Shown here: positions 310 to 33,448 of the stretch, in pieces
Layout of the letters: each line of letters begins with the position of its first letter
Position numbering within the stretch: position 1 is the first letter of the stretch
Assembly (NCBI GenBank): GCA_026389055.1
Contig: JAPLIO010000214.1
Coordinates: forward strand, 1-33,448
DNA: 33,448 nucleotides
Direction of reading: 5' to 3'
Origin: Candidatus Melainabacteria bacterium
GTDB lineage: Bacteria > Cyanobacteriota > Vampirovibrionia > Vampirovibrionales > JAJTHC01
Notes under the pieces: generated by a model
Database searches by the model: none
Seen by the model: the letters and a program-made list of their open reading frames with translations, nothing else
What the model was told of the DNA's origin: nothing
Made by a program: the position numbers and the translations under genes

Positions 310-343
310 TAATGAAACGGTAAAAGAACTCCATCAAGCTCAT

Positions 344-550
344 TAGACCTCTTGCATGACTCGAGAGGTGGGTGCAGATTCTAGGAATGTTGTTTGCCCT
401 GCAAACAGGTTGCTTTAGCAACCAAGAACGGAGAATTTGACGTGTACAGAGAAGTACATAAGAATTCGAGTACCACAAATGACAACGTAAAACGTTCTAC
501 GTTTTCTCGCCCTGCGGATGCCCCAGATATCGAGTCATGCAAGAGGTCTA
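344..550 (+). repeat. Family A palindromic structured element, expanded copy (207 nt)
   Basis: Starts TAGACCTCTTGCATGACTCGAG and ends with the reverse complement CTCGAGTCATGCAAGAGGTCTA. It is collinear with the 146-nt copy at 6506-6651 except for two hairpin-forming insertions at 390-425 and 488-516. Confidence 0.85.
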
Positions 551-649
551 TTATTTAACAAGTAACCCTTCAGAAGTGGTTCCATTCTACCGAAATAACC
601 AATAGTAGTTCTTATTTGTTAGTTAGCTTGGTTAGGGTAGGTTTAAAAA

Positions 650-2702: not shown

Positions 2703-3683
2703 ATGATGATGATGATGTCTGTAGAAGAAACGCCCACCACCATAGCCCCTTCGGCACCGCCTGCCTTACCCCCCGAAAAAATGGCGATTGATTGGATGAT
2801 TTCCCCGCCACCACCACCGAGGAATAACGCCACTACCGTTGCAGGCAATCCCAACGATGAAGAAGGTAATACTAATAACAGTTTGTCTTCTTCTGAAGCG
2901 AAAAATACCACGTTGCCAGCCTTAGCAACGGCATTAACCAAACCGTGGGAAGCATGGCAAACTAAAATGCAAGCAGAAGAACTGCCCATTGTAGACCCCA
3001 TCTTAGAACGTTGCTGGCCCTATTTCCTAACAGAAGGCGTCGCTTTCGGAATTTTTGGCTTTATGGCGGTTGTGCTACCCGCCGTTTTAGGGGCAGATGC
3101 CAGTGCCGATTTCATGGGTATTTTATTTGTAATGTGTGCGGTTATGCAGTTGGTTCGTTCCTACACAGCCAGAGAATTACCGGGGTTTTTGCCTAGTTTA
3201 ATTGCAGCCGTGTTTACCCTCAACATTGGGGCGTTAATTTTCGCTTACCCCACAGACCGTTCCATTAGCACCCCCTTGGGGCTGTGTCTATTTTTCATGG
3301 TGCAAGCCCTAACCAACTTCTTTTTTAGCCAAAACTTCAAGCCCTTCCCCTACGCACAAGGCTTTTTATTTCTAGGCACCCTTTGTGGGCTATTCCTTTT
3401 TCTGATGGTGATTCCCAACGTGTGGAAAGACGATATTCTTCAAAACTTGTTGGTAGGCACCGAACTCCTCCTACACGGAGCCATTTTAGCAGGAGTCGCC
3501 CTAGGGTTACAGAGAATGGCTAGGGGGCAAGATGCCCTGCACCCATTAGCAACCTTACAATATAATCAATACCCGTTCAGCCGTAACGAAAAAGCAGAGG
3601 TTACAACCCGCCGTTCCGCTACGGCAACCAACCAAACTGCCGCTATAACAGATGGGGTTACGGCTGCACCGTGGCAATTGTAA
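2703..3683 (+). CDS. HdeD/DUF308-like polytopic membrane protein with a Pro-rich N-terminal extension
   Basis: Starts with five tandem ATG codons at 2703-2717. The C-terminal ~200 aa form about six transmembrane helices laid out like HdeD (FGIFGFMAVVLPAVLG ... LVGTELLLHGAILAG). The N-terminal ~100 aa are Pro/Thr/Asn-rich. The start codon is uncertain; the ORF track begins at TTG 2667. Confidence 0.5.
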   Translation: MMMMMSVEETPTTIAPSAPPALPPEKMAIDWMISPPPPPRNNATTVAGNPNDEEGNTNNSLSSSEAKNTTLPALATALTKPWEAWQTKMQAEELPIVDPILERCWPYFLTEGVAFGIFGFMAVVLPAVLGADASADFMGILFVMCAVMQLVRSYTARELPGFLPSLIAAVFTLNIGALIFAYPTDRSISTPLGLCLFFMVQALTNFFFSQNFKPFPYAQGFLFLGTLCGLFLFLMVIPNVWKDDILQNLLVGTELLLHGAILAGVALGLQRMARGQDALHPLATLQYNQYPFSRNEKAEVTTRRSATATNQTAAITDGVTAAPWQL

Positions 3684-4948: not shown

Positions 4949-4954
4949 CTATAT

Positions 4955-4991
4955 CATCGATTGTTGTTCTCGTCTTTCGCTGGTTGGTTTG
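4955..4991 (+). repeat. Solo copy of the family B 5' module
   Basis: CATCGATTGTTGTTCTCGTCTTTCGCTGGTTGGTTTG closely matches 28939-28975 and the reverse complement of 32606-32642. The rest of family B is absent here. It starts 7 nt after the recF stop codon. Confidence 0.55.
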
Positions 4992-6468: not shown

Positions 6469-6505
6469 TTGACATCTCGTATAGTTTTTGGTATAAGCTG
6501 TTTAC

Positions 6506-6651
6506 TAGACCTCTTGCATGACTCGAGAGGTGGGTGCAGATTCTAGGAATGAGGAACGGAGAATTTGACGTGTACAGAGAAGTACATAAGAATTCGAGTA
6601 CCGCAAATGACAACGAAGATGCCCCAGATATCGAGCCATGCAAGAGGTCTA
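6506..6651 (+). repeat. Family A palindromic structured element, canonical 146-nt copy
   Basis: A roughly 21-nt terminal inverted repeat (TAGACCTCTTGCATGACTCGA / TCGAGCCATGCAAGAGGTCTA) encloses the core GGGTGCA...CTAGGAATGAGGAACG...TGTAC-AGAGAA-GTACA...CAAATGACAACGAAGA...TGCCCC. Confidence 0.85.
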
Positions 6652-6852
6652 CTACAATAAGGTTACTTTTCTGCATTCCGATACCTTCTTCCTTAAAAGT
6701 CTTCCTATTTGTCCATTCTTTACGTTTAATGGTATTTAGTGGATAATTTTCAAACGGTATTCTGTTTGTATTTCAGCCTAATAGGCAACTCTCAATTTAA
6801 AAATATAACCACGCTAACTTAAACCTTACAACCCGTAGGAATTCCCTGTCTA

Positions 6853-12792: not shown

Positions 12793-12821
12793 TTGACAAA
12801 TGGTGTGTATTGGAGGATAAT
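12793..12821 (+). promoter_or_regulatory. Putative sigma70 promoter of the toxin-antitoxin operon
   Basis: Consensus TTGACA at 12793-12798, a 17-nt spacer, then GATAAT at 12816-12821. The predicted transcription start falls on or next to the GTG at 12829. Confidence 0.5.
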
Positions 12822-12828
12822 TAAAATA

Positions 12829-13104
12829 GTGGAAATTCGACTAACTAAATTTGCCCAAAAACAATTTGAAAAAGCCCCTAGCTCCATCCAAGATAAATTA
12901 GAAGATTGGATGATACTGATTGAAGCCGAAGGGCTAGACTTTGCAAGAACCTTGAAAGGGTATCATGATGAACCACTTCAAGGAAAACGCAAGGGACAAC
13001 GGTCTATTCGACTCAATCGTCAATGGCGGGCAATATACGAAGAGTTAACAGGCACAATTATTGAAATACAGGAGATTACTCCCCATGATTACAGAGTTCG
13101 ATGA
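12829..13104 (+). CDS. RelE/ParE-superfamily toxin (HigB-like, toxin-first arrangement)
   Basis: 91 aa from the GTG. The motif LQGKRKGQRSIRLNRQWRAIY...I.EI..HDY matches the RelE/HigB core. It overlaps the downstream HTH gene by 20 nt. The ORF track start at TTG 12793 coincides with the -35 box. Confidence 0.75.
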   Translation: MEIRLTKFAQKQFEKAPSSIQDKLEDWMILIEAEGLDFARTLKGYHDEPLQGKRKGQRSIRLNRQWRAIYEELTGTIIEIQEITPHDYRVR

Positions 13105-13435
13105 TGGTAGCATGCTGGCAAGAGATTTCCTAAAATCCTTAGGAAGACCCGAACCCACAACGGGTAGAGTTATGCGGTCTTGGCGGAAATGCGAAGACTT
13201 GACTCTGGAAACAGTAGCCAAACAATTAGGCATCAGCAAACAACTACTTTCCGCCTATGAACGAGACGAAAAACGCCCTAGCATTCAACGTCTAATGGAA
13301 ATTTGCCAACTGATTGGGATGGACCCCGCCATGATTTTACATTTCCGCATTAAAGATGAAATTCGAGGCTTCGGCTACGAGCTGAAAAAAATTGTGTTAG
13401 AACCCATTCAACCCAAAACAGATAAAGCGTCTTAA
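13085..13435 (+). CDS. XRE-family HTH antitoxin (HigA-like)
   Basis: The HTH reads LTLETVAKQLGISKQLLSAYERDEKRPSIQRLMEICQLIG. The gene is translationally coupled to and overlaps the upstream toxin gene. Confidence 0.75.
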   Translation: MITEFDDGSMLARDFLKSLGRPEPTTGRVMRSWRKCEDLTLETVAKQLGISKQLLSAYERDEKRPSIQRLMEICQLIGMDPAMILHFRIKDEIRGFGYELKKIVLEPIQPKTDKAS

Positions 13436-20255: not shown

Positions 20256-21164
20256 ATGACAACCATCGCTACCATCCCATCCGCACTAGCGTGCCAAACG
20301 TTTCAAGATTTATTGGCCCGCCTTAGCCAGTTTTGGGCAAACCAAGGGTGCGTCATCCAACAACCGTTTGACCTTGAAAAAGGGGCTTCCACCATGAACC
20401 CCGCCACCTTCCTTCGGGCATTAGGTCCCGAACCGTGGAACCTAGCCAACGTAGACCCCTGCCGTCGTCCTACCGACGGACGTTACGGCGAAAACCCCAA
20501 TCGCTTGCAACACTATTTTCAATATCAAGTGCTAATGAAACCATCCCCCCCCAATATTCAGGAGTTGTATTTAGATTCGCTCCGAGCCTTAGGCATTAAA
20601 CCCGAAGAACATGATATTCGGTTTGTAGAAGACAATTGGGAATCGCCCACGTTAGGGGCATGGGGCGTAGGCTGGGAAGTTTGGTTGGATGGCATGGAAG
20701 TAACGCAATTCACCTATTTTCAACAAGCAGGCGGGTTGGAAGTAAACCCCTGTGCCGTGGAAATTACCTATGGGTGCGAACGCTTAGCGATGTATCTGCA
20801 AAACAAAGAAAGCGTTTATGACTTGGCTTGGAATGAAACCTGTAGCTACGGCGATGTTTATTTGCAAAACGAAATTGAACAATCTACCTATAATTTTCAG
20901 GTTTCTAACAGGGAACGGTTAGCTCAACGCTTTGACCTTTACAAAGCCGAAGTGCAAGATTGTTTAGAAGCGAAATTAGTGTTACCCGCTTATGAGCAGG
21001 TTTTAAAATGTTCACACACGTTTAACCTAATGGATGCCCGTGGTATGTTAAGCCGTGATGAGCGGACGAATCATATTATGATTATTCGTCGGTTAGCGGA
21101 ACAAGTGGCTAAACTGTATGTAGAACAACGCAAAGCGTTAGGTTTTCCATTGTTAAAAAAGTAA
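20256..21164 (+). CDS. glyQ: Glycine--tRNA ligase alpha subunit
   Basis: 302 aa with the highly conserved GlyQ blocks [62 protein letters not shown] and [13 protein letters not shown]. No glyS gene follows. Confidence 0.95.
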
Positions 21165-21310
21165 TAGACCTCTTGCATGGCTCGATATCTGGGGCATCTT
21201 CGTTGTCATTTGCGGTACTCGAATTCTTATGTACTTTTGTGTACACCGCAAATTCTGCGTTCCTCATTCCTAGAATCTGCACCCACCTATCGAGCCATGC
21301 AAAAGGCCTA
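21165..21310 (-). repeat. Family A palindromic structured element, 146 nt, inverted orientation
   Basis: Its reverse complement aligns end to end with 6506-6651, with roughly ten substitutions. It begins at the base immediately after the glyQ TAA stop codon. Confidence 0.85.
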
Positions 21311-21457
21311 ATAGGTTTGGGGTATTGTATCTCAATTTAAATAACAACCTAAAGTTTTGATGACTTTAGGTCGAAAGCTCTTTTAGTAGTCGTTTGTTTT
21401 ACTCCGGTTCGTTTGAAAACAGGAGTAAAGCTCGCTTCAAAACAGGAGTATATTGCA

Positions 21458-27560: not shown

Positions 27561-27628
27561 CGTCATTTCGAGCTTGTCGAGGTCCCCTTAGACGCTAAGG
27601 AGATTCCTCGGCTACGCTCGGAATGACG
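27561..27628. repeat. 68-nt nested palindromic hairpin element in the antiporter leader
   Basis: The outer 13-bp stem pairs CGTCATTTCGAGC with GCTCGGAATGACG. Inner helices are CGAGG/CCTCG and TTAG-ACG-CTAA. The GAATGACG/CGTCATT arms resemble short palindromic repeats that yield spurious '...ERSRGIS...' ORFs in other genomes (from memory, not checked). Confidence 0.55.
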
Positions 27629-27653: not shown

Positions 27654-28922
27654 ATGCCCACCGTTTCCCATACCGAAATAGCCATGCCTGCCCTACTGTT
27701 TTTAATGGGCGGCGTATTATTGTTAATAGCCCTAGGTAGCCAAAGCTTCAAAAAACGAGGGCTTTCCCCCGTAGTAGGTGAAATGCTGGTAGGCATGGCG
27801 ATAGGGCCTTTCGGTTTTGGATGGCTTCAGCCCAATTTGGTACTTCATGTACTGGCGGAACTAGGCTTGGTGTTTTTGCTACTTGAAACGGGGCTAGAAA
27901 CCCAAATTGCCAGCCTATGGGCAGCAGGGAAATCTTCCTTAAAAGTAGCCGTTATAGGGGTTGTTTTACCCCTTATTTTAGGTACAGGTATTGGGCTAGC
28001 GTTTCAGTTGCCCCTATTGACAGCCGTTTTAGTGGGGGCAACGCTTTCCGCTACCAGTATTGGTATTACCGCCAAAGCCCTGCAGGAATTAGACCTGCAA
28101 CATCGCCCAGAAACAGCGATTATTCTGGGTGCAGCGGTGATAGATGACGTACTGGGCTTGCTGATTTTAGCCTTATTGCAAGGCTTGTTTTCATCGGCAG
28201 GAAAAGGAACGGAAATCGCCTTCACACTGGCTAATTTAATGCCTTTGTTGGGTATTATAAGCCTTGTTGCTATCGGCTATTGTGGCAGAAACTGGCTATT
28301 AACCGCTGTTTTACCGCAGATTGTTCGGGTAGGTAAGTGGTTCACGAAGAAATTAGTCGTCCCCAAAGATGGGTCTGCTAAAGAGGTTTTCATTTTAATA
28401 GGCGGTATGTTGTGCTTGTTGGCAGGGTTGAATCAAACCATCGGGCTTTCTACGGCGTTGGGGGGCTTTATGGTGGGGCTAGCCCTACAAAAATGGAGCA
28501 ATAATGAACCTCGGTTACAGTCTGTGGTGCAAGAAGTAGGCGTGGTGGGCAGTTTGATGATTCCCTTTGCGTTTGTGAATTTGGGTATGCAACTCAACTG
28601 GAAGCAGCTAATTCCTGTTGATGCTAGCGTGTTTAGCCCTCCGTTGTTGTGGGTGGCGTTGGGGATTACCGTTATTGCCTTTATTAGTAAGTATTTGGCG
28701 GGGTTTGCCGTGCCGAAAGCCAACGGAATGAATCGGTCGTTGATTGGGTTGGGGATGATTCCTCGGGGGGAAGTGGGGTTAATTTTTGTGCAGGTGGGGT
28801 TGAGTGTGGGTGCATTGACTGATTTTTGGGCGAATGTGTTGGTGCTGGCGGTTTGTATTTCCACGCTGATTCCGCCTATTTTGCTTAAAATGGCGGTGCA
28901 AGCAGAAAAGAAGCAATCATGA
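27654..28922 (+). CDS. Cation:proton antiporter (CPA2 / Na+/H+ exchanger family)
   Basis: About 12 TM helices. The motifs LGLVFLLLETGLET and GMIPRGEVGLIF are typical of Kef/NapA-type exchangers. The ATG at 27654 is preferred over the TTG at 27639. Confidence 0.85.
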   Translation: MPTVSHTEIAMPALLFLMGGVLLLIALGSQSFKKRGLSPVVGEMLVGMAIGPFGFGWLQPNLVLHVLAELGLVFLLLETGLETQIASLWAAGKSSLKVAVIGVVLPLILGTGIGLAFQLPLLTAVLVGATLSATSIGITAKALQELDLQHRPETAIILGAAVIDDVLGLLILALLQGLFSSAGKGTEIAFTLANLMPLLGIISLVAIGYCGRNWLLTAVLPQIVRVGKWFTKKLVVPKDGSAKEVFILIGGMLCLLAGLNQTIGLSTALGGFMVGLALQKWSNNEPRLQSVVQEVGVVGSLMIPFAFVNLGMQLNWKQLIPVDASVFSPPLLWVALGITVIAFISKYLAGFAVPKANGMNRSLIGLGMIPRGEVGLIFVQVGLSVGALTDFWANVLVLAVCISTLIPPILLKMAVQAEKKQS

Positions 28923-28938
28923 ATAGTATTTTCTTAAG

Positions 28939-29156
28939 TCGATTGTCGTTCCTAGCTTTCGCTGGTTGGTTTGTCAGGGGGCTGTCGTTTGACAGCCCCC
29001 CGACACCCCCCACAAATTCAGGGGCAAGCCCCTAAAAACCCCCGAAAAAACACCCCCTATGCCACCAGAAGGGCATTGACGGGGGATGCTTTTTTCGCCC
29101 CTTCGGTGGACGAAACGCTGTGCGAAAGACGCACAGGTCGTTCCTACCAGTTGGTC
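28939..29156 (+). repeat. Family B GC-rich structured element, copy 1
   Basis: Aligns with the reverse complement of 32391-32642. Helices include GGGGGCTGTC-GTTT-GACAGCCCCC, GGGGC-AA-GCCCC, CCCCC...ATGCC-ACCAGAA-GGCAT...GGGGG, C-TTCG-G and CTGTGCG-AAAGA-CGCACAG. A 10-nt direct repeat GTCGTTCCTA lies at 28945-28954 and 29137-29146. Confidence 0.75.
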
Positions 29157-29196
29157 AATTTTTACATTATTAAAGGTTTAATGGGACTCAATCATC

Positions 29197-29589
29197 ATGA
29201 AAAACAACCCCCTACATCCTGTTGCGGATTTGGAACAGATTTTAACCCATCTAAGGGCGTTTTATTTCCCGAAAGCCCCTGCATTGGCGGATTTATATAC
29301 TAGGCTGAACGAAGCTAGAGCTTGGTTTAATGCGAACGTTGAAGGCTTTACGATGATTTTGGAAGATGTTTGGAATGAAACAACCGAACACCAAACCAGG
29401 ATAGACTACCAACTCCGAAGCCTTACCACGAAAGATGAAAGCACTCCGCTAGCTAGCGATGTTTACGGCAATAGGCGGGATGCTAACGGTGTTTGGCATT
29501 TAGAGGCTTATCAGCAGTCGGTTTTATTTCTGGATACCGACCTTTCAATGGTGCGGTCTTTCCTACTAGCAAATGCCCCGAAAATGTAA
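29197..29589 (+). CDS. Hypothetical protein
   Basis: 130-aa ORF with an ATG start and no recognisable motif. It lies between family B copy 1 and hicA. Confidence 0.5.
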   Translation: MKNNPLHPVADLEQILTHLRAFYFPKAPALADLYTRLNEARAWFNANVEGFTMILEDVWNETTEHQTRIDYQLRSLTTKDESTPLASDVYGNRRDANGVWHLEAYQQSVLFLDTDLSMVRSFLLANAPKM

Positions 29590-29656
29590 CTATTTTTAGT
29601 TGTATTTTTTTGAAAGCTATGCCATACTAAGTTTAGTTACAGAAAAAAGAGGTTTT

Positions 29657-29905
29657 ATGTCCAAACAAGCCAAATTATTGGAAAAACTCAAAAATAATTC
29701 AGCCCTAAAATGGGACGAACTGGCAACGCTGTTGAAGTCTCTTGGGTTTGAACTAATCCACGAGGCAGGGTCTCGACGGAAATTTTGGCATCAATCTTCT
29801 AATACATTAATTAACTTACATCAACCGCACCCACAACCCGAACTTAAAAGGTATCAGAAAACATTGGTGCTTGAAGCCCTACAAAACGGAGGTTTTCTAT
29901 CATGA
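29657..29905 (+). CDS. hicA: HicA-family mRNA interferase toxin
   Basis: 82 aa from the ATG at 29657, with AGAGG upstream. The pattern W.EL..LL..LGFE......GS.RKF.H.......L.L..PH..P.LK.Y fits HicA. It overlaps the downstream hicB by 4 nt (ATGA). Confidence 0.8.
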   Translation: MSKQAKLLEKLKNNSALKWDELATLLKSLGFELIHEAGSRRKFWHQSSNTLINLHQPHPQPELKRYQKTLVLEALQNGGFLS

Positions 29906-30258
29906 AGTCAGATTTTTTAACCCACAAAGGGTATTCTGGGTCAGTTTCTTATTCTGCCGAAGATAACTGCTTATTTGGCAAAATAGAATTTATTAAAGAT
30001 TTAGTTACTTATGAAGGCGAAACCGTTGCCCAAGTGAAAGTGGCATTTGTTGAAGCGGTGGAAGATTATTTAGCCACCTGCGAAACCTTGGGTAAAGAGC
30101 CTGAACAACCTTTTAAAGGGGTTTTTCAAGTGCGTACCAGCCCAGAGGTGCATCGGCAATTAGCTTTTTTCGCAAAGCATTCTGAAAAAAACTTGAATGA
30201 ATTAGCCAATGAAGCGTTTCAGCAGTATTTAAATCAACAGAAGCTAAAACAACCCTAG
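29902..30258 (+). CDS. hicB: HicB-family antitoxin
   Basis: HicB N-terminal pattern YKGYSGSV.YS.ED....G.I....D......G.T........F.EAVEDYL..C...G. The C-terminal F.VR..PE.H..LA..A........NE.....Q.YL is a RHH-like DNA-binding tail. Confidence 0.85.
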   Translation: MKSDFLTHKGYSGSVSYSAEDNCLFGKIEFIKDLVTYEGETVAQVKVAFVEAVEDYLATCETLGKEPEQPFKGVFQVRTSPEVHRQLAFFAKHSEKNLNELANEAFQQYLNQQKLKQP

Positions 30259-30310
30259 CCCCTGTTTATTACGGATTTCTTATGTTTTTCATCCCGAAGG
30301 GTTGCCTCAA

Positions 30311-30319
30311 TGCTATAAT
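30311..30319 (+). promoter_or_regulatory. Possible extended -10 promoter (TGCTATAAT) upstream of the pepA leader
   Basis: The TGnTATAAT match is at 30311-30319 with no convincing -35. If it is used, the family-A-like element at 30372-30551 lies in the pepA 5' UTR. Confidence 0.3.
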
Positions 30320-30371
30320 TTAACCGTGTCTAATTCGCAAAAATCACGATGTTATTTTTTCCTGTTGTTAT

Positions 30372-30551
30372 AGAAGCTGTTTGCATAGTTGTCAAGGAAG
30401 TGCAATTTCTAGGAATGAGGAACGCAATGACGGGCGTGTAGATTAACTACATAACCGAATGTTGATTCCACTGGAATCATTCTGCCGAAGGCAGAAAATA
30501 CCGCAAATGACAACGAAAGTGCCTTGATTGGCGACTATGCAGATAGCTTCT
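30372..30551 (+). repeat. Divergent family A structured element in the pepA leader region
   Basis: It shares GTGCA(A/G)(T/A)TTCTAGGAATGAGGAACG and TACCGCAAATGACAACGAA with the canonical copies. Its closing stem is different but complementary (AGAAGCTGTTTGCATAGT... / ...ACTATGCAGATAGCTTCT). Its apical hairpin is compensated (TGTAG-ATTAA-CTACA). It also has two extra hairpins (TGATTCC-ACT-GGAATCA and TCTGCC-GAA-GGCAGA). Confidence 0.65.
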
Positions 30552-30571
30552 TAGAAAAGTGAGACCCCATT

Positions 30572-32167
30572 ATGCCAGCTGTTACGCCAACAATTTTAGT
30601 TTCAGATAAATGCCCAACCAACGTGGATGTTACCACCGTTCTAGTGCCCGTATGGGGAGCAGAAGCCCCTGCCGATAAAACCGCCGAAGATGCCCCCAAG
30701 CCCAGCCTGCCAGAATCCAAAGCCCTCAGCTGCATGGCAGAAGGCATGGGCTTACCCATTTACGCAATCGCCGCCGAAGAAAAATTCACGGGCACGCTGG
30801 CAAAAACCCTCGTCTTTCGTATGCCTGAAAGCACCGAACACAAAATTAAACGCGTCGTATTGTTAGGCCTTGGCGAAGCTAAAAAACTGACGCTCGGCAA
30901 GCTAACCATGGCAATTGCCAGCGGGTTAAAATCCATTCAAGGGTGGAATGAAGACCTTCAAAAAGTCGCCATTTCCCTGCCTAAAGCTTATGAATTGTTT
31001 GGTGGGTCGTTAAATACGGCGGAGACACTGAAAACCAGCATTTCTACAGAAGAAATTACGCTAGCCGTAACCCGTGGTGTGTTTGCTGTAACCTACAAAG
31101 CCTTAGAAGCCAAAAAACCCGCCAAAGCCTTCGCTAACTTGGTTTACCTAACCCCTGAAGTAGCCACGGTTGAACAAGCCTTACCGTTAGCTATTGCTTT
31201 GAATGAAGGGCGTTCGTTAACCAAAGATTTAGTGAACATGCCAGCCAACACCAAAACGACAAAATCGTTAGTGGATGCGGCAAAGGCCATTGCTGATGAA
31301 TTTGCTTCGGTTTCAATCACCGTGGTAGATGACGTGGCTTGGATTGAAAAAGAAATGCCCTGCTTCTACCAAGTAGCCAGAGGTAGCGTTGCAACCGACC
31401 CTCCCAAATGGATTCACTTGGTTTACAAGGGTGCGAACCCGACTCGGAAAATTGCACTTGTTGGGAAGTCCGTCATTTTTGATACGGGCGGGTACCAAGT
31501 AAAACCGGGCGATTCCATGGTTACTATGAAGGGCGATATGGCAGGTGGAGCAAGTGTTTTAGGCACATTGAAAGCCATTGCAAAAGTAGCCCCTGCCCAC
31601 TTGGAATTGCACGTTTTCCTAGCCGCTACCCCCAACAAAATTGATAGCGACGCAATGGTGCCAGATTCAATTGTCAACACCACTTGCGGAAAAACCGTGG
31701 AAATTCGTCATACCGATGCGGAAGGGCGTTTGACCTTGATTGATGCGGTTACTTTAGCTTGCAAACAAGAACCTGAAGCCATTGTAACGGTTGCCACCTT
31801 AACGGGTGCAGCCATGATGGCGGTGGGTAGAACCATTGCCTTAATGAGCAATAACCCACATTGGGGCGATTTAGTGCATGCTGGGGCGGTTACGGCAGGC
31901 GAGCCCGTCCAAGCGTTGACGGTTACCCTTGAAGATTTTGAAAATATCCAATCCAAAGCCGAAGGGGCGGATTTACGCAACACCAACAAAGGCAGAACGC
32001 GTGGGGCTCAAACCGCAGCGGCGTTTGTGATGGAAGGTGCCGATGAGGGTGTTCCGTTGGTTCATCTGGATATTGCGGGTGCGGATATGACCGATGACGA
32101 GAAAGCGACTGCTTATTCTGTTGGTTCGTTAGTTCACTTTTTGTTGGCACTACCTGCCCAAAAATAG
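30572..32167 (+). CDS. pepA: Leucyl aminopeptidase (M17 family)
   Basis: M17 catalytic blocks VGKSVIFDTGGYQVKPG, MKGDMAGGA and HTDAEGRLTLIDA (matching the NTDAEGRL signature), plus TLTGA. Confidence 0.92.
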   Translation: MPAVTPTILVSDKCPTNVDVTTVLVPVWGAEAPADKTAEDAPKPSLPESKALSCMAEGMGLPIYAIAAEEKFTGTLAKTLVFRMPESTEHKIKRVVLLGLGEAKKLTLGKLTMAIASGLKSIQGWNEDLQKVAISLPKAYELFGGSLNTAETLKTSISTEEITLAVTRGVFAVTYKALEAKKPAKAFANLVYLTPEVATVEQALPLAIALNEGRSLTKDLVNMPANTKTTKSLVDAAKAIADEFASVSITVVDDVAWIEKEMPCFYQVARGSVATDPPKWIHLVYKGANPTRKIALVGKSVIFDTGGYQVKPGDSMVTMKGDMAGGASVLGTLKAIAKVAPAHLELHVFLAATPNKIDSDAMVPDSIVNTTCGKTVEIRHTDAEGRLTLIDAVTLACKQEPEAIVTVATLTGAAMMAVGRTIALMSNNPHWGDLVHAGAVTAGEPVQALTVTLEDFENIQSKAEGADLRNTNKGRTRGAQTAAAFVMEGADEGVPLVHLDIAGADMTDDEKATAYSVGSLVHFLLALPAQK

Positions 32168-32390
32168 GGGGTTGTTCCCTTGTTAAATGCGATAGGTGTA
32201 TTATTGCTTAGTTTGGGCTGAAATTTTTAGCTTCAAACCATAGGCAGTTGGCTAGCCACAGGCAAACTACTAGACCCCCGACTGCTCATTTCGGGGGCTT
32301 TTTGCTAGCCAAAAGTGCTAGATGCCCTTGATGCGATGGAGCAAGGCTTGGGCTTTAATACCAATTGACAATTTAAATAGCGTAAGCATG

Positions 32391-32642
32391 CAAACCACCC
32401 AGTAGGAACGACCATCGCATTTGCTCTGCAGCTGCCGATGCGTTCCGTCCACCGAAGGGGCAAAAAGAACATCCCGCCGTCAATGCCCTTCTGGTGGCAT
32501 AGGCGGGTGGCGTTTAGGGTGGTTTTTCCGTAGGGGCTTGCCCCTGAATTTGTCCAAAAAAATTAAAAAGCGTGTTGGGGGGTGCCCAAACAGGCACCCC
32601 CCCGACAAACCAACCAGCTAAAGACTGAAACAACAATCGATG
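32391..32642 (-). repeat. Family B GC-rich structured element, copy 2, inverted relative to copy 1
   Basis: Its reverse complement aligns with 28939-29156. It carries compensatory differences in helix 1 (GGGGGGTGCC/GGGCACCCCCC versus GGGGGCTGTC/GACAGCCCCC) and helix 3 (CCCGCC/GGCGGG versus CCCCC/GGGGG). It is somewhat longer because of an A/T-rich insertion. Confidence 0.75.
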
Positions 32643-32709
32643 AAAGAACACGCTATTTAATCTGTGAATCGGCATCCAGCAATAAAGCACAGACAAAAAG
32701 GGGGGTTCA

Positions 32710-33367: not shown

Positions 33368-33448
33368 TAGACCTCTTGCATGACTCGATATCTGGGGCAT
33401 CTTTTTTGTCATTTGCGGTACTCCTTTGGTTATTTAGTTAGTCTAAAC
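33368..33448 (-). repeat. Family A element, partial or interrupted copy at the window edge
   Basis: TAGACCTCTTGCATGACTCGATATCTGGGGCATCTTTTTTGTCATTTGCGGTACTC matches the first ~56 nt of the inverted copy at 21165. After that it diverges, and the window ends. Confidence 0.7.

Follow-up and report, generated by a model that had tools for sequence, protein, structure and literature searches.

A hairpin-forming repeat inserted upstream of pepA in Vampirovibrionales belongs to a probably mobile family constrained as a folded strand

Upstream of pepA in a Vampirovibrionales contig lies a long inverted repeat, and the locus raises the question of whether this sequence is a regulator of pepA or one copy of a dispersed repeat family, here designated family A. 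The window, which is the whole stretch of DNA analysed (33,448 nt), was placed in Vampirovibrionales through pepA homologs. Its housekeeping genes are rplY-like, recF-like, dnaJ-like, pheS, ligA, glyQ, Mur-ligase-like, Na/H exchanger and pepA genes, and it also carries a merR-family gene and hicAB and higB/HTH toxin-antitoxin pairs.

The sequence at 30372-30551 on the plus strand folds into one long hairpin of 180 nt with -73.4 kcal/mol, against -40.7 +/- 3.6 kcal/mol for shuffled sequences (z -9.0), and it was recognized by the family A profile with the nhmmer E-value 1.4e-28. Its parts and their surroundings are as follows.

30311-30319, plus strand: extended -10-like sequence TGCTATAAT, read directly; possible pepA promoter, upstream of the insertion
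30368-30372, no strand: left 5-mer TTATA, probable target-site duplication, 4/5 match to TTAGA
30372-30551, plus strand: pepA-leader element, family A repeat copy, AGAAGC-terminus subtype, apex of three hairpins
30372-30397, plus strand: closing stem P1, 5' arm AGAAGCTGTTTGCATAGTTGTCAAGG, which pairs with 30522-30551
30400-30424, plus strand: core block 1, GTGCAATTTCTAGGAATGAGGAACG, 5' strand of the irregular internal-loop helix
30436-30452, plus strand: apical hairpin 1, GTGTAG ATTAA CTACAT, with the family-invariant G·U closing pair and the C-G to G-C swap
30463-30496, plus strand: two extra hairpins, TGATTCC-ACT-GGAATCA and TTCTGCC-GAA-GGCAGAA, found only in three-hairpin apex variants
30499-30517, plus strand: core block 2, TACCGCAAATGACAACGAA, 3' strand of the irregular internal-loop helix
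30522-30551, plus strand: closing stem P1, 3' arm CCTTGATTGGCGACTATGCAGATAGCTTCT, the pairing arm in the fold
30551-30555, no strand: right 5-mer TTAGA, probable target-site duplication, matched by only one TTAGA at the equivalent position of the ortholog
30572-32167, plus strand: pepA, M17 leucyl aminopeptidase (Pfam PF00883 and PF02789), whose start agrees with the ortholog N-terminus MPAVTPTIL

An earlier note on this DNA had described the element as a divergent copy that keeps its core motifs and replaces its closing stem, and this description holds. The two core blocks are near-identical to those of the canonical copies (2 mismatches in block 1, block 2 identical), and the terminal inverted repeat is a different sequence that still pairs, with both arms closing the hairpin. 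Also real is the apical swap from C-G to G-C that the note reported: GTGTAG..CTACAT is present here versus GTGTAC..GTACAT in the canonical copies, and the swap is carried by 3 of the 15 aligned copies (alignment columns 110/117). In the 5' arm of P1 the transition mismatches are 5 G·U and 0 A·C, and the extra apex hairpins show compensated differences in two copies from another genome described below (L003:4896-5040 and L005:1162-1375). The element end at 30551 is 20 nt from the pepA ATG at 30572, and the extended -10-like sequence is present at 30311-30319, both as the note had read them.

The core blocks recur in the window. Core block 1 is found with 2 mismatches at 6534-6558 (plus strand) and 21258-21282 (minus strand), and core block 2 is identical at 6599-6617 and 21199-21217 and has 2 mismatches at 471-489 and 33402-33420; for both blocks, 0 occurrences are expected in shuffled sequences. 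Repeat finding and alignment revealed five family A copies in the 33-kb window, and the four copies besides the pepA-leader element are listed here.

341-553, plus strand: family A copy enlarged by two insertions, a hairpin pair within core 1 and a 27-nt hairpin behind core 2
About 6503-6655, plus strand: canonical family A copy, inverted-repeat core 6508-6649, flanked by TACTA on both sides
About 21161-21313, minus strand: canonical family A copy, flanking 5-mer overlapping the glyQ stop codon
33365-33448, minus strand: 3' half only of a family A copy, truncated by the window end

The canonical copy at about 6503-6655 (153 nt) has the same fold architecture as the pepA-leader element (-64 kcal/mol, z -10.3).

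A screening of one genome per species with a pattern derived from the two cores gave matches in one organism only, the MAG Vampirovibrio sp. DET50b, in which nine copies were placed (loci L002-L006 and L009-L012). Two further matches in a coding region (L007 and L008) lack the hairpin architecture and were treated as chance pattern matches, as were L022 and L024 from the second metagenome scan described below. Searches of the fetched DET50b loci with blastn and nhmmer added three copies (L003:4896-5040, L004:1625-1745, and L005:1162-1375), giving 12 copies in about 88 kb of loci. One more copy was found on an IMG/VR contig (L029), and the total is 18. A relaxed two-core pattern gave no matches in the first metagenome scan or in a viral scan.

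Family A copies are 150-215 nt long, below 500 bp, and have no transposase gene of their own. Every copy has long inverted termini, whose sequence differs between subfamilies (53-57% identity). The AGAAGC-terminus subtype of the pepA-leader element is also present at L011:1727-1875 in DET50b. The apex consists of one hairpin in the canonical copies and L011 and of three in the pepA copy, L003:4896-5040 and L005:1162-1375. An extra hairpin within core 1 is seen in window 341-553, L005:1162-1375 and L029, and the 27-nt hairpin after core 2 is shared by window 341-553 and L009.

The relation of the element to pepA was analyzed by comparison with orthologous leaders. The closest pepA ortholog (P0002, 84% amino acid identity) is encoded on two contigs (L013/L014), and its leader has no element. 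There, the extended -10 sequence TGGTATACT is followed by about 33 nt, TTCCTGTTGTTA, 17 unrelated nt, TTAGAAAG, 9 nt and the ATG; in the window, TGCTATAAT is followed by about 39 nt, TTCCTGTTGTTA-TA, the element, TTAGAAAAG, 12 nt and the ATG. The ortholog TGGTATACT lies at a similar distance once the element is removed. Comparison of both layouts therefore shows the window leader as an otherwise recognisable leader plus the element, with the site empty in the relative, although this empty site is not clean and contains 17 unrelated nt. An nhmmer search of the pepA leaders of more distant orthologs (L015-L017) found no family A copy. Thus the expectation that orthologous pepA leaders carry the structure was not borne out, either in the 84% ortholog or in L015-L017. 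The pepA gene call of the ortholog is extended to 585 aa, and the public contig with the window pepA terminates inside the element.

A consensus scan of 30200-30620 revealed neither a full -35/-10 sigma-70 promoter nor a terminator. Transcription from the extended -10 sequence into the element is plausible, and if it starts just past TGCTATAAT, the 5' UTR would be about 246 nt long. In the predicted fold of the leader the element hairpin is intact, and the last 20 nt and the start codon are unpaired in the centroid. No expression platform, either a terminator/anti-terminator or sequestration of the ribosome-binding site, was found in the predicted leader fold or the scan.

Several features of the insertion sites point to mobility. 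Among 14 copies, the flanking 5-nt direct repeats match at 5/5 positions in three pairs and at 4/5 in six, and several pairs match at only 1-3 of 5. The middle base of the flanking 5-mers co-varies in 12 of the 14 copies, being C/C twice, A/A three times, and T/T seven times. These flanks have the look of a 5-bp duplication made at a TANTA-like target site, although, as all are AT-rich and TANTA-like, the match could in part reflect the sequence of the element itself or a preference for certain targets. The inverted-repeat core inside them ends in GACC...GGTC, or in GAAGC...GCTTC in the pepA subtype. The canonical copy next to glyQ adjoins its stop codon in the window, and an 89% glyQ ortholog (L018) has no copy there. 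The AGAAGC-subtype copy of L011 is located between rluB-like and fur-like genes.

Copies point either way and occupy 5' and 3' regions as well as the interior of ORFs. Relative to neighbouring genes, about seven are co-oriented, about five are anti-oriented, and five lie between convergent or divergent genes. In DET50b, the L009 copy forms an in-frame insert of 57 aa in the GTP cyclohydrolase II domain of ribBA, and its outer stem, different in sequence and still complementary, avoids the stop codon of the canonical copy; this is the one in-frame case among the 18 copies. In L029, an antisense copy lies within a prophage large-terminase gene, with the N-terminal half on one side and the C-terminal half on the other, and the gene is apparently disrupted. 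No transposase was found in the window, and only short copies, without any autonomous element with matching ends, were recognized in the window and about 150 kb of fetched loci. Terminal repeats that differ between subfamilies are unusual for transposase-dependent MITEs.

The pattern of substitutions indicates what is kept in these elements. Covariation was analyzed in 15 complete copies from the window and DET50b with stems defined by RNAalifold, after removal of one invariant helix inside core 1. Both sides were changed in 23 of the 36 stem pairs, and standard pairing was seen in 96% of the cells, versus 83% in column shuffles and 31-41% with a slid partner column; none of 500 shuffles matched the observed values on any measure. 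Compensated changes are also seen in P1 between the window pepA copy and L011 of the same subtype. The covariation that the earlier note anticipated in a mixed alignment of canonical and divergent members therefore goes beyond the controls.

Wobble pairs are distributed asymmetrically. The aligned stems contain 39 G·U versus 3 A·C cells, with 15 of the G·U contributed by the invariant apical closing pair; counted by polymorphic pair positions, G·U occurs at 10 and A·C at 3 (p about 0.09). Independent arm-against-arm alignments gave 29 G·U versus 7 A·C, including six G·U from L004:1596-1741 that were counted only there, the 3' arm of this copy having been misaligned by MAFFT. The core-sense strand folds better than the antisense strand in 24 of 25 copies (15/16 family copies and 9/9 further relatives), in keeping with wobble pairs that sit almost only on that strand, and the antisense fold is weaker by 2-23 kcal/mol. 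All 15 aligned copies close the apical hairpin with the same G·U pair, which is also present in the distant relatives described below.

Conservation is uneven along the element. When eight divergent lineages are compared pairwise, the P1 arms are 53-57% identical and the lower apical stem about 58%; the cores reach 76-80% at positions unforced by the search and 98% at search-forced positions, and core conservation is partly ascertained because most extra copies came from patterns requiring core parts. The statement that the termini are less conserved than the cores thus stands on 53-57% for P1 against 76-80% for the unforced core, within this partial ascertainment. The cores face each other in an irregular helix of GCA/UGC, purine-purine mismatches and UUC/GAA, which ends with AAUGAGGAAC opposite CAAAUGACAAC, a GAGG/CCGC segment. 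The last segment is compensated in L004:1625-1745 (GCGG/CCGU) and fully Watson-Crick in a distant copy, L016.

The 23 compensated pairs out of 36, the 39:3 ratio of G·U to A·C and the stronger sense fold in 24 of 25 copies uphold the earlier proposal of selection on a folded molecule with specific internal loops. They support the conclusion that family A is under selection as one folded strand, either RNA or single-stranded DNA. Coding is not the constraint, since the open frame that starts at the core 1 ATG in the canonical copy stops after 8 codons in the pepA copy, and a small protein was rejected. This frame is the sole long one in the element, and one in-frame insert is translated through it. 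A small self-cleaving ribozyme was rejected as well: by eye, the conserved nucleotides fit none of the hammerhead, twister, pistol, hatchet and hairpin cores. An own promoter or terminator was sought by consensus scan and dismissed, with T-runs behind only some copies.

Relatives with the same inner part were found outside the close family. A distant copy was detected with nhmmer in another Vampirovibrionales MAG between metK and recA (L016:4607-4756). Its P1 is unrelated, its UUC..GGAA and UGACA..GAAG strands are recognisable, and its apical hairpin GTGTACATAGAAGTACAT is identical to those of L005a and L006. A second metagenome scan, with a pattern from the apex and the UGACANNGAAG strand, gave eight loci on contigs of about 34-36% GC with a related hairpin of about 125 nt. 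The best matches of TsaD from one such contig are Clostridia (Acidaminobacter-, Fusibacter- and Caminicella-like). In all seven Clostridia copies a small conserved stem-loop precedes the hairpin, the unit is flanked by a direct duplication of a locus-specific terminator-like hairpin of 18-32 nt, and the copy lies in sense orientation between these terminator-like hairpins. The flanking duplicates differ mainly in their loops in most copies. The sense fold of the Clostridia copies is better than the antisense fold by 10-16 kcal/mol.

Judged by sequence, the module of core and apex is apparently older and wider than the Vampirovibrio family, because it was found in L016 and the Clostridia contigs, and it has another flank signature in Clostridia. 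The conservation of core and apex with different flanks in Clostridia hints at a function beyond selfish mobility. A bolder reading, which is speculative and more probably wrong than right, is that the core loop and the G·U-closed apex are an undescribed structured single-strand module that Vampirovibrionales and Clostridia have in common, serving as the active part of a new kind of hairpin-dependent mobile element whose outer stem is free to vary and whose insertion signature depends on the lineage. If this were true, the signatures would be the 5-nt duplication in Vampirovibrio and the duplication of a whole terminator-like hairpin in Clostridia, and movement would be structure-guided, strand-specific transposition or retro-copying, not the work of a classical transposase that reads terminal repeats.

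It is probable, with considerable room for doubt, that family A is a non-autonomous, MITE-like mobile palindrome, nearest in its behaviour to bcr1, ERIC and RPE, whose sense-strand fold is recognised, with P1 a mere helix, the specificity in core and apex, and the pepA copy a recent insertion with incidental effects. Its mover would be an enzyme acting in trans and encoded elsewhere, and this enzyme or a host factor would read the single-stranded core-sense fold as RNA or ssDNA. A helix would be the sole requirement on P1, and the recognition surface may have three parts: the irregular core helix, the apical hairpin and the G·U pair that closes it. The pepA copy is of the subfamily whose P1 arms differ and whose apex has three hairpins, and it was probably inserted between the probable promoter and the start codon once the lineage had diverged from its closest sampled relative. 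If it is transcribed from the extended -10 sequence, it would form a very stable 5'-UTR hairpin that ends 20 nt before the AUG and leaves the ribosome-binding region free. From such a stable hairpin and free region, one would expect mRNA stability or processing by RNases to be affected incidentally, rather than ligand sensing or a control dedicated to pepA; by analogy with Correia and ERIC (PMC10969869), a copy that is transcribed could change the half-life of the mRNA or become a substrate of RNase III.

That the element is instead a dedicated cis-acting regulator of the pepA leader, of the riboswitch or attenuator type, would agree with its sense orientation between the extended -10-like site and the ATG, its very stable fold and its conserved internal loops. 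This reading is highly improbable, as the leader of the closest ortholog and those of L015-L017 have no element, the same subtype occurs at an unrelated locus and the same cores beside unrelated genes, and the fold contains no terminator/anti-terminator and no RBS sequestration. The suggestion in the earlier note of an action specific to pepA thus fails against the empty ortholog, the same subtype elsewhere and the mixed orientations and ORF locations of the copies. The hairpin should not be annotated as a conserved regulator because it is a lineage-specific insertion. A broader functional reading takes family A as a structured ncRNA module, either a multi-copy small RNA or a protein-binding scaffold, with dispersal secondary and the pepA copy one functional instance. 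The strand-specific wobble excess and stronger sense fold, the invariant apical closing G·U (15/15 copies, plus L016 and Clostridia), the conserved purine-purine mismatches beside UUC/GAA, and the core pairing compensated in L004:1625-1745 and L016 all fit such a module, as do the conservation of core and apex across two phyla and the sense placement of 7/7 Clostridia copies between terminator-like hairpins. It is nevertheless unlikely: the Vampirovibrio copies are about seven co-oriented to about five anti-oriented, have no own promoter or terminator in the consensus scan, interrupt or lengthen ORFs, are flanked by direct repeats with orthologous sites empty, and match no Rfam family.

The flanks and empty sites are also compatible with an ordinary DDE-type MITE, of which the hairpin would be a by-product of terminal inverted repeats and the compensation a product of template switching or intra-palindrome repair. 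Direct repeats of 5 nt are typical of staggered-cut transposition, the insertions at the pepA and glyQ sites are polymorphic, and template switching is documented to make multi-base "compensatory" changes in hairpins (PMC8794818). However, template switching predicts perfect Watson-Crick arms, whereas the stems of family A show many G·U and almost no A·C, and the antisense strand folds worse by 2-23 kcal/mol. In addition, conservation is highest in the asymmetric internal loops, and the termini differ between subfamilies, which a transposase reading terminal repeats should not tolerate. An ordinary MITE of this type is thus rather improbable, and the preferred reading remains a mobile palindrome recognised through its folded sense strand.

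At the level of pepA the result is deflationary. At the level of the family, a new repeat family is documented in the little-studied predatory Vampirovibrionales, and the evidence that such a mobile palindrome is under constraint as a single folded strand is clean. The mobilising activity, if found, could account for the movement of elements with non-conserved termini. Family A repeats also break assemblies and can yield false ORFs and extended gene calls.

Comparison with known systems places family A beside several described repeats. Rfam 15 gave nothing credible with gathering and permissive thresholds for the window, the element, a canonical copy, and a Clostridia copy; in the window only two tRNAs reach the threshold, and the best sub-threshold matches are chance snoRNA/miRNA hits with E-values of at least 0.13. 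The literature search found no paper on repeats in Vampirovibrio. Family A was filed, from its sequence traits, as a putatively undescribed repeat family of the structured MITE-like kind, because it shares traits with bcr1, ERIC, Correia, RPE, and REPIN and because no Rfam match and no Vampirovibrio-repeat paper were found.

REPINs of the REP-RAYT system are doublets of hairpin-forming repeats, which are thought to be moved as single-stranded hairpins, and selection keeps the hairpin. The hairpin of family A is likewise kept by selection. However, family A has no REP units of 20-40 nt with a GTAG or CGTC tag; a REPIN consists of two inverted REPs, whereas the conserved parts of family A are asymmetric and no RAYT gene was seen.

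ERIC/IRU and Correia (NEMIS) elements resemble family A as imperfect intergenic palindromes of 100-200 bp, found in either orientation and with internal-insertion variants, but their sequences are unrelated to it. Correia elements conserve their terminal repeats, are flanked by a TA duplication and contain IHF and promoter sites, whereas family A varies at its termini and conserves its internal loops. Transcribed ERIC and Correia hairpins change the fate of mRNA via RNase III or RNase E, and known MITEs affect transcripts through these RNases and through promoters (PMC10969869). The RPE of Rickettsia, palindromic and about 150 bp long, may be located within protein genes without breaking the reading frame (PMC10969869), similar to the family A copy that adds 57 aa to RibBA. 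In family A, by contrast, this is one in-frame case only, most copies are intergenic, and the canonical copy has a stop in that frame.

A blastn search of family A and the Clostridia relative against a plasmid collection gave no match, which is a weak test as the presence of bcr1 in the collection is unconfirmed. The bcr1 repeat of the Bacillus cereus group (Okstad 2004, Klevan 2007) is about 155 bp long, multi-copy and strain-variable in distribution, flanked by 5-bp TTTAT direct repeats, and transcribed, with a structure kept by compensatory changes (PMC3184786, PMC6199540). The two differ in fold, host and evidence of expression: bcr1 is described as cruciform-like with two stem-loops, whereas family A forms a single long hairpin interrupted by internal loops; the host phyla differ; and transcription is shown for bcr1. 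They agree in size, copy number, non-conserved distribution, 5-bp AT-rich repeats, compensatory changes and the lack of a known transposase. The closest described analogue of family A is thus bcr1.

Family A, the probably mobile palindromic hairpin repeat also found in the pepA leader, occurs inside a protein-coding gene at one locus outside the window and apparently at a second:

L009:6442-6610, (-) strand, family A copy in ribBA of Vampirovibrio sp. DET50b
L029:2545-2715, (-) strand, canonical family A copy whose core 1 (one of the two conserved internal-loop strands) carries an additional hairpin, in the IMG/VR contig UViG_3300034020_001616

In ribBA, the GTP cyclohydrolase II domain is interrupted in frame by the copy, which adds 57 aa bounded by ...MGDLSTV before and LVRVHSECLTGD after. 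The outer stem of this copy differs in sequence from that of canonical copies, but its arms are nonetheless complementary, and the altered stem sequence has removed the stop codon that canonical copies carry. The L029 copy is flanked by two ORFs corresponding to the N-terminal half (1670-2560) and the C-terminal half (2852-3322) of a phage large terminase, with DNA methylase and serine recombinase genes nearby; this looks like a prophage large terminase gene disrupted by the repeat. In the window, the stop codon TAA of glyQ (20256-21164) at 21162-21164 lies inside the 5-mer flanking a family A copy (21162-21166), and an ortholog with 89% identity terminates with LLK-TAG and has no repeat beyond. 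Thus, the insertion of family A touched the end of glyQ.

The surroundings of pepA include a second repeat family, designated B, and two toxin-antitoxin pairs are present in the window:

28922-29185, (+) strand, family B copy
32373-32676, family B copy, inverted relative to 28922-29185
4954-4991, partial match to family B
29600-30258, hicA/hicB toxin-antitoxin pair, immediately 5' of the pepA leader
12793-13435, higB-like/HTH toxin-antitoxin pair

Family B is a GC-rich multi-hairpin element of ~260-300 nt (predicted fold -100 kcal/mol, z -4.5), and its two inverted copies enclose pepA together with hicAB and the family A copy. Further copies were found in five DET50b loci and directly upstream of the orthologous pepA (L013:5844-6009); there, the stretch separating pepA from the family B repeat contains no hicAB. 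Two ORFs, 28971-29303 and 29197-29589, all or part of which lie inside a family B copy, have no match in Pfam and may be spurious. A 40-nt segment at 27588-27627, 97.5% identical to L009:1674-1713, suggests from the sequence match another short repeat family.

The public Logan contig with an identical pepA (L001) breaks off within the family A repeat, at a point 58 nt 5' of the start codon ATG, and the gene call of the pepA ortholog P0002 in L013 has 54 additional codons that reach into the leader. In both cases an assembly or annotation artefact related to the repeat seems likely.

Related hairpins were recognized outside the Vampirovibrio family:

L016:4607-4756, (+) strand, distant family A member between metK and recA in the Vampirovibrionales MAG GCA_046080465.1
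L019:3666-3815, related hairpin, Clostridia-like metagenome contig
L019:9383-9463, related hairpin, same contig
L020, L021, L023, L026, and L028, related hairpins, Clostridia-like metagenome contigs

The closing stem of the L016 member is unrelated, its core region is entirely Watson-Crick paired (AAAACAA/TTGTTTT), and its apical hairpin is identical to that in two DET50b copies. Each copy in the Clostridia-like contigs is preceded by a small conserved stem-loop (GGCTGTCGAC.AAGTCGACTGAC) and lies between two directly repeated versions of an 18-32-nt terminator-like hairpin that is particular to the locus; for most copies, the two versions diverge chiefly in their loops. This family, ~125 nt in length, has in common with family A the apical hairpin and the UUC..GGAAC / UGACAANGAAG strands.
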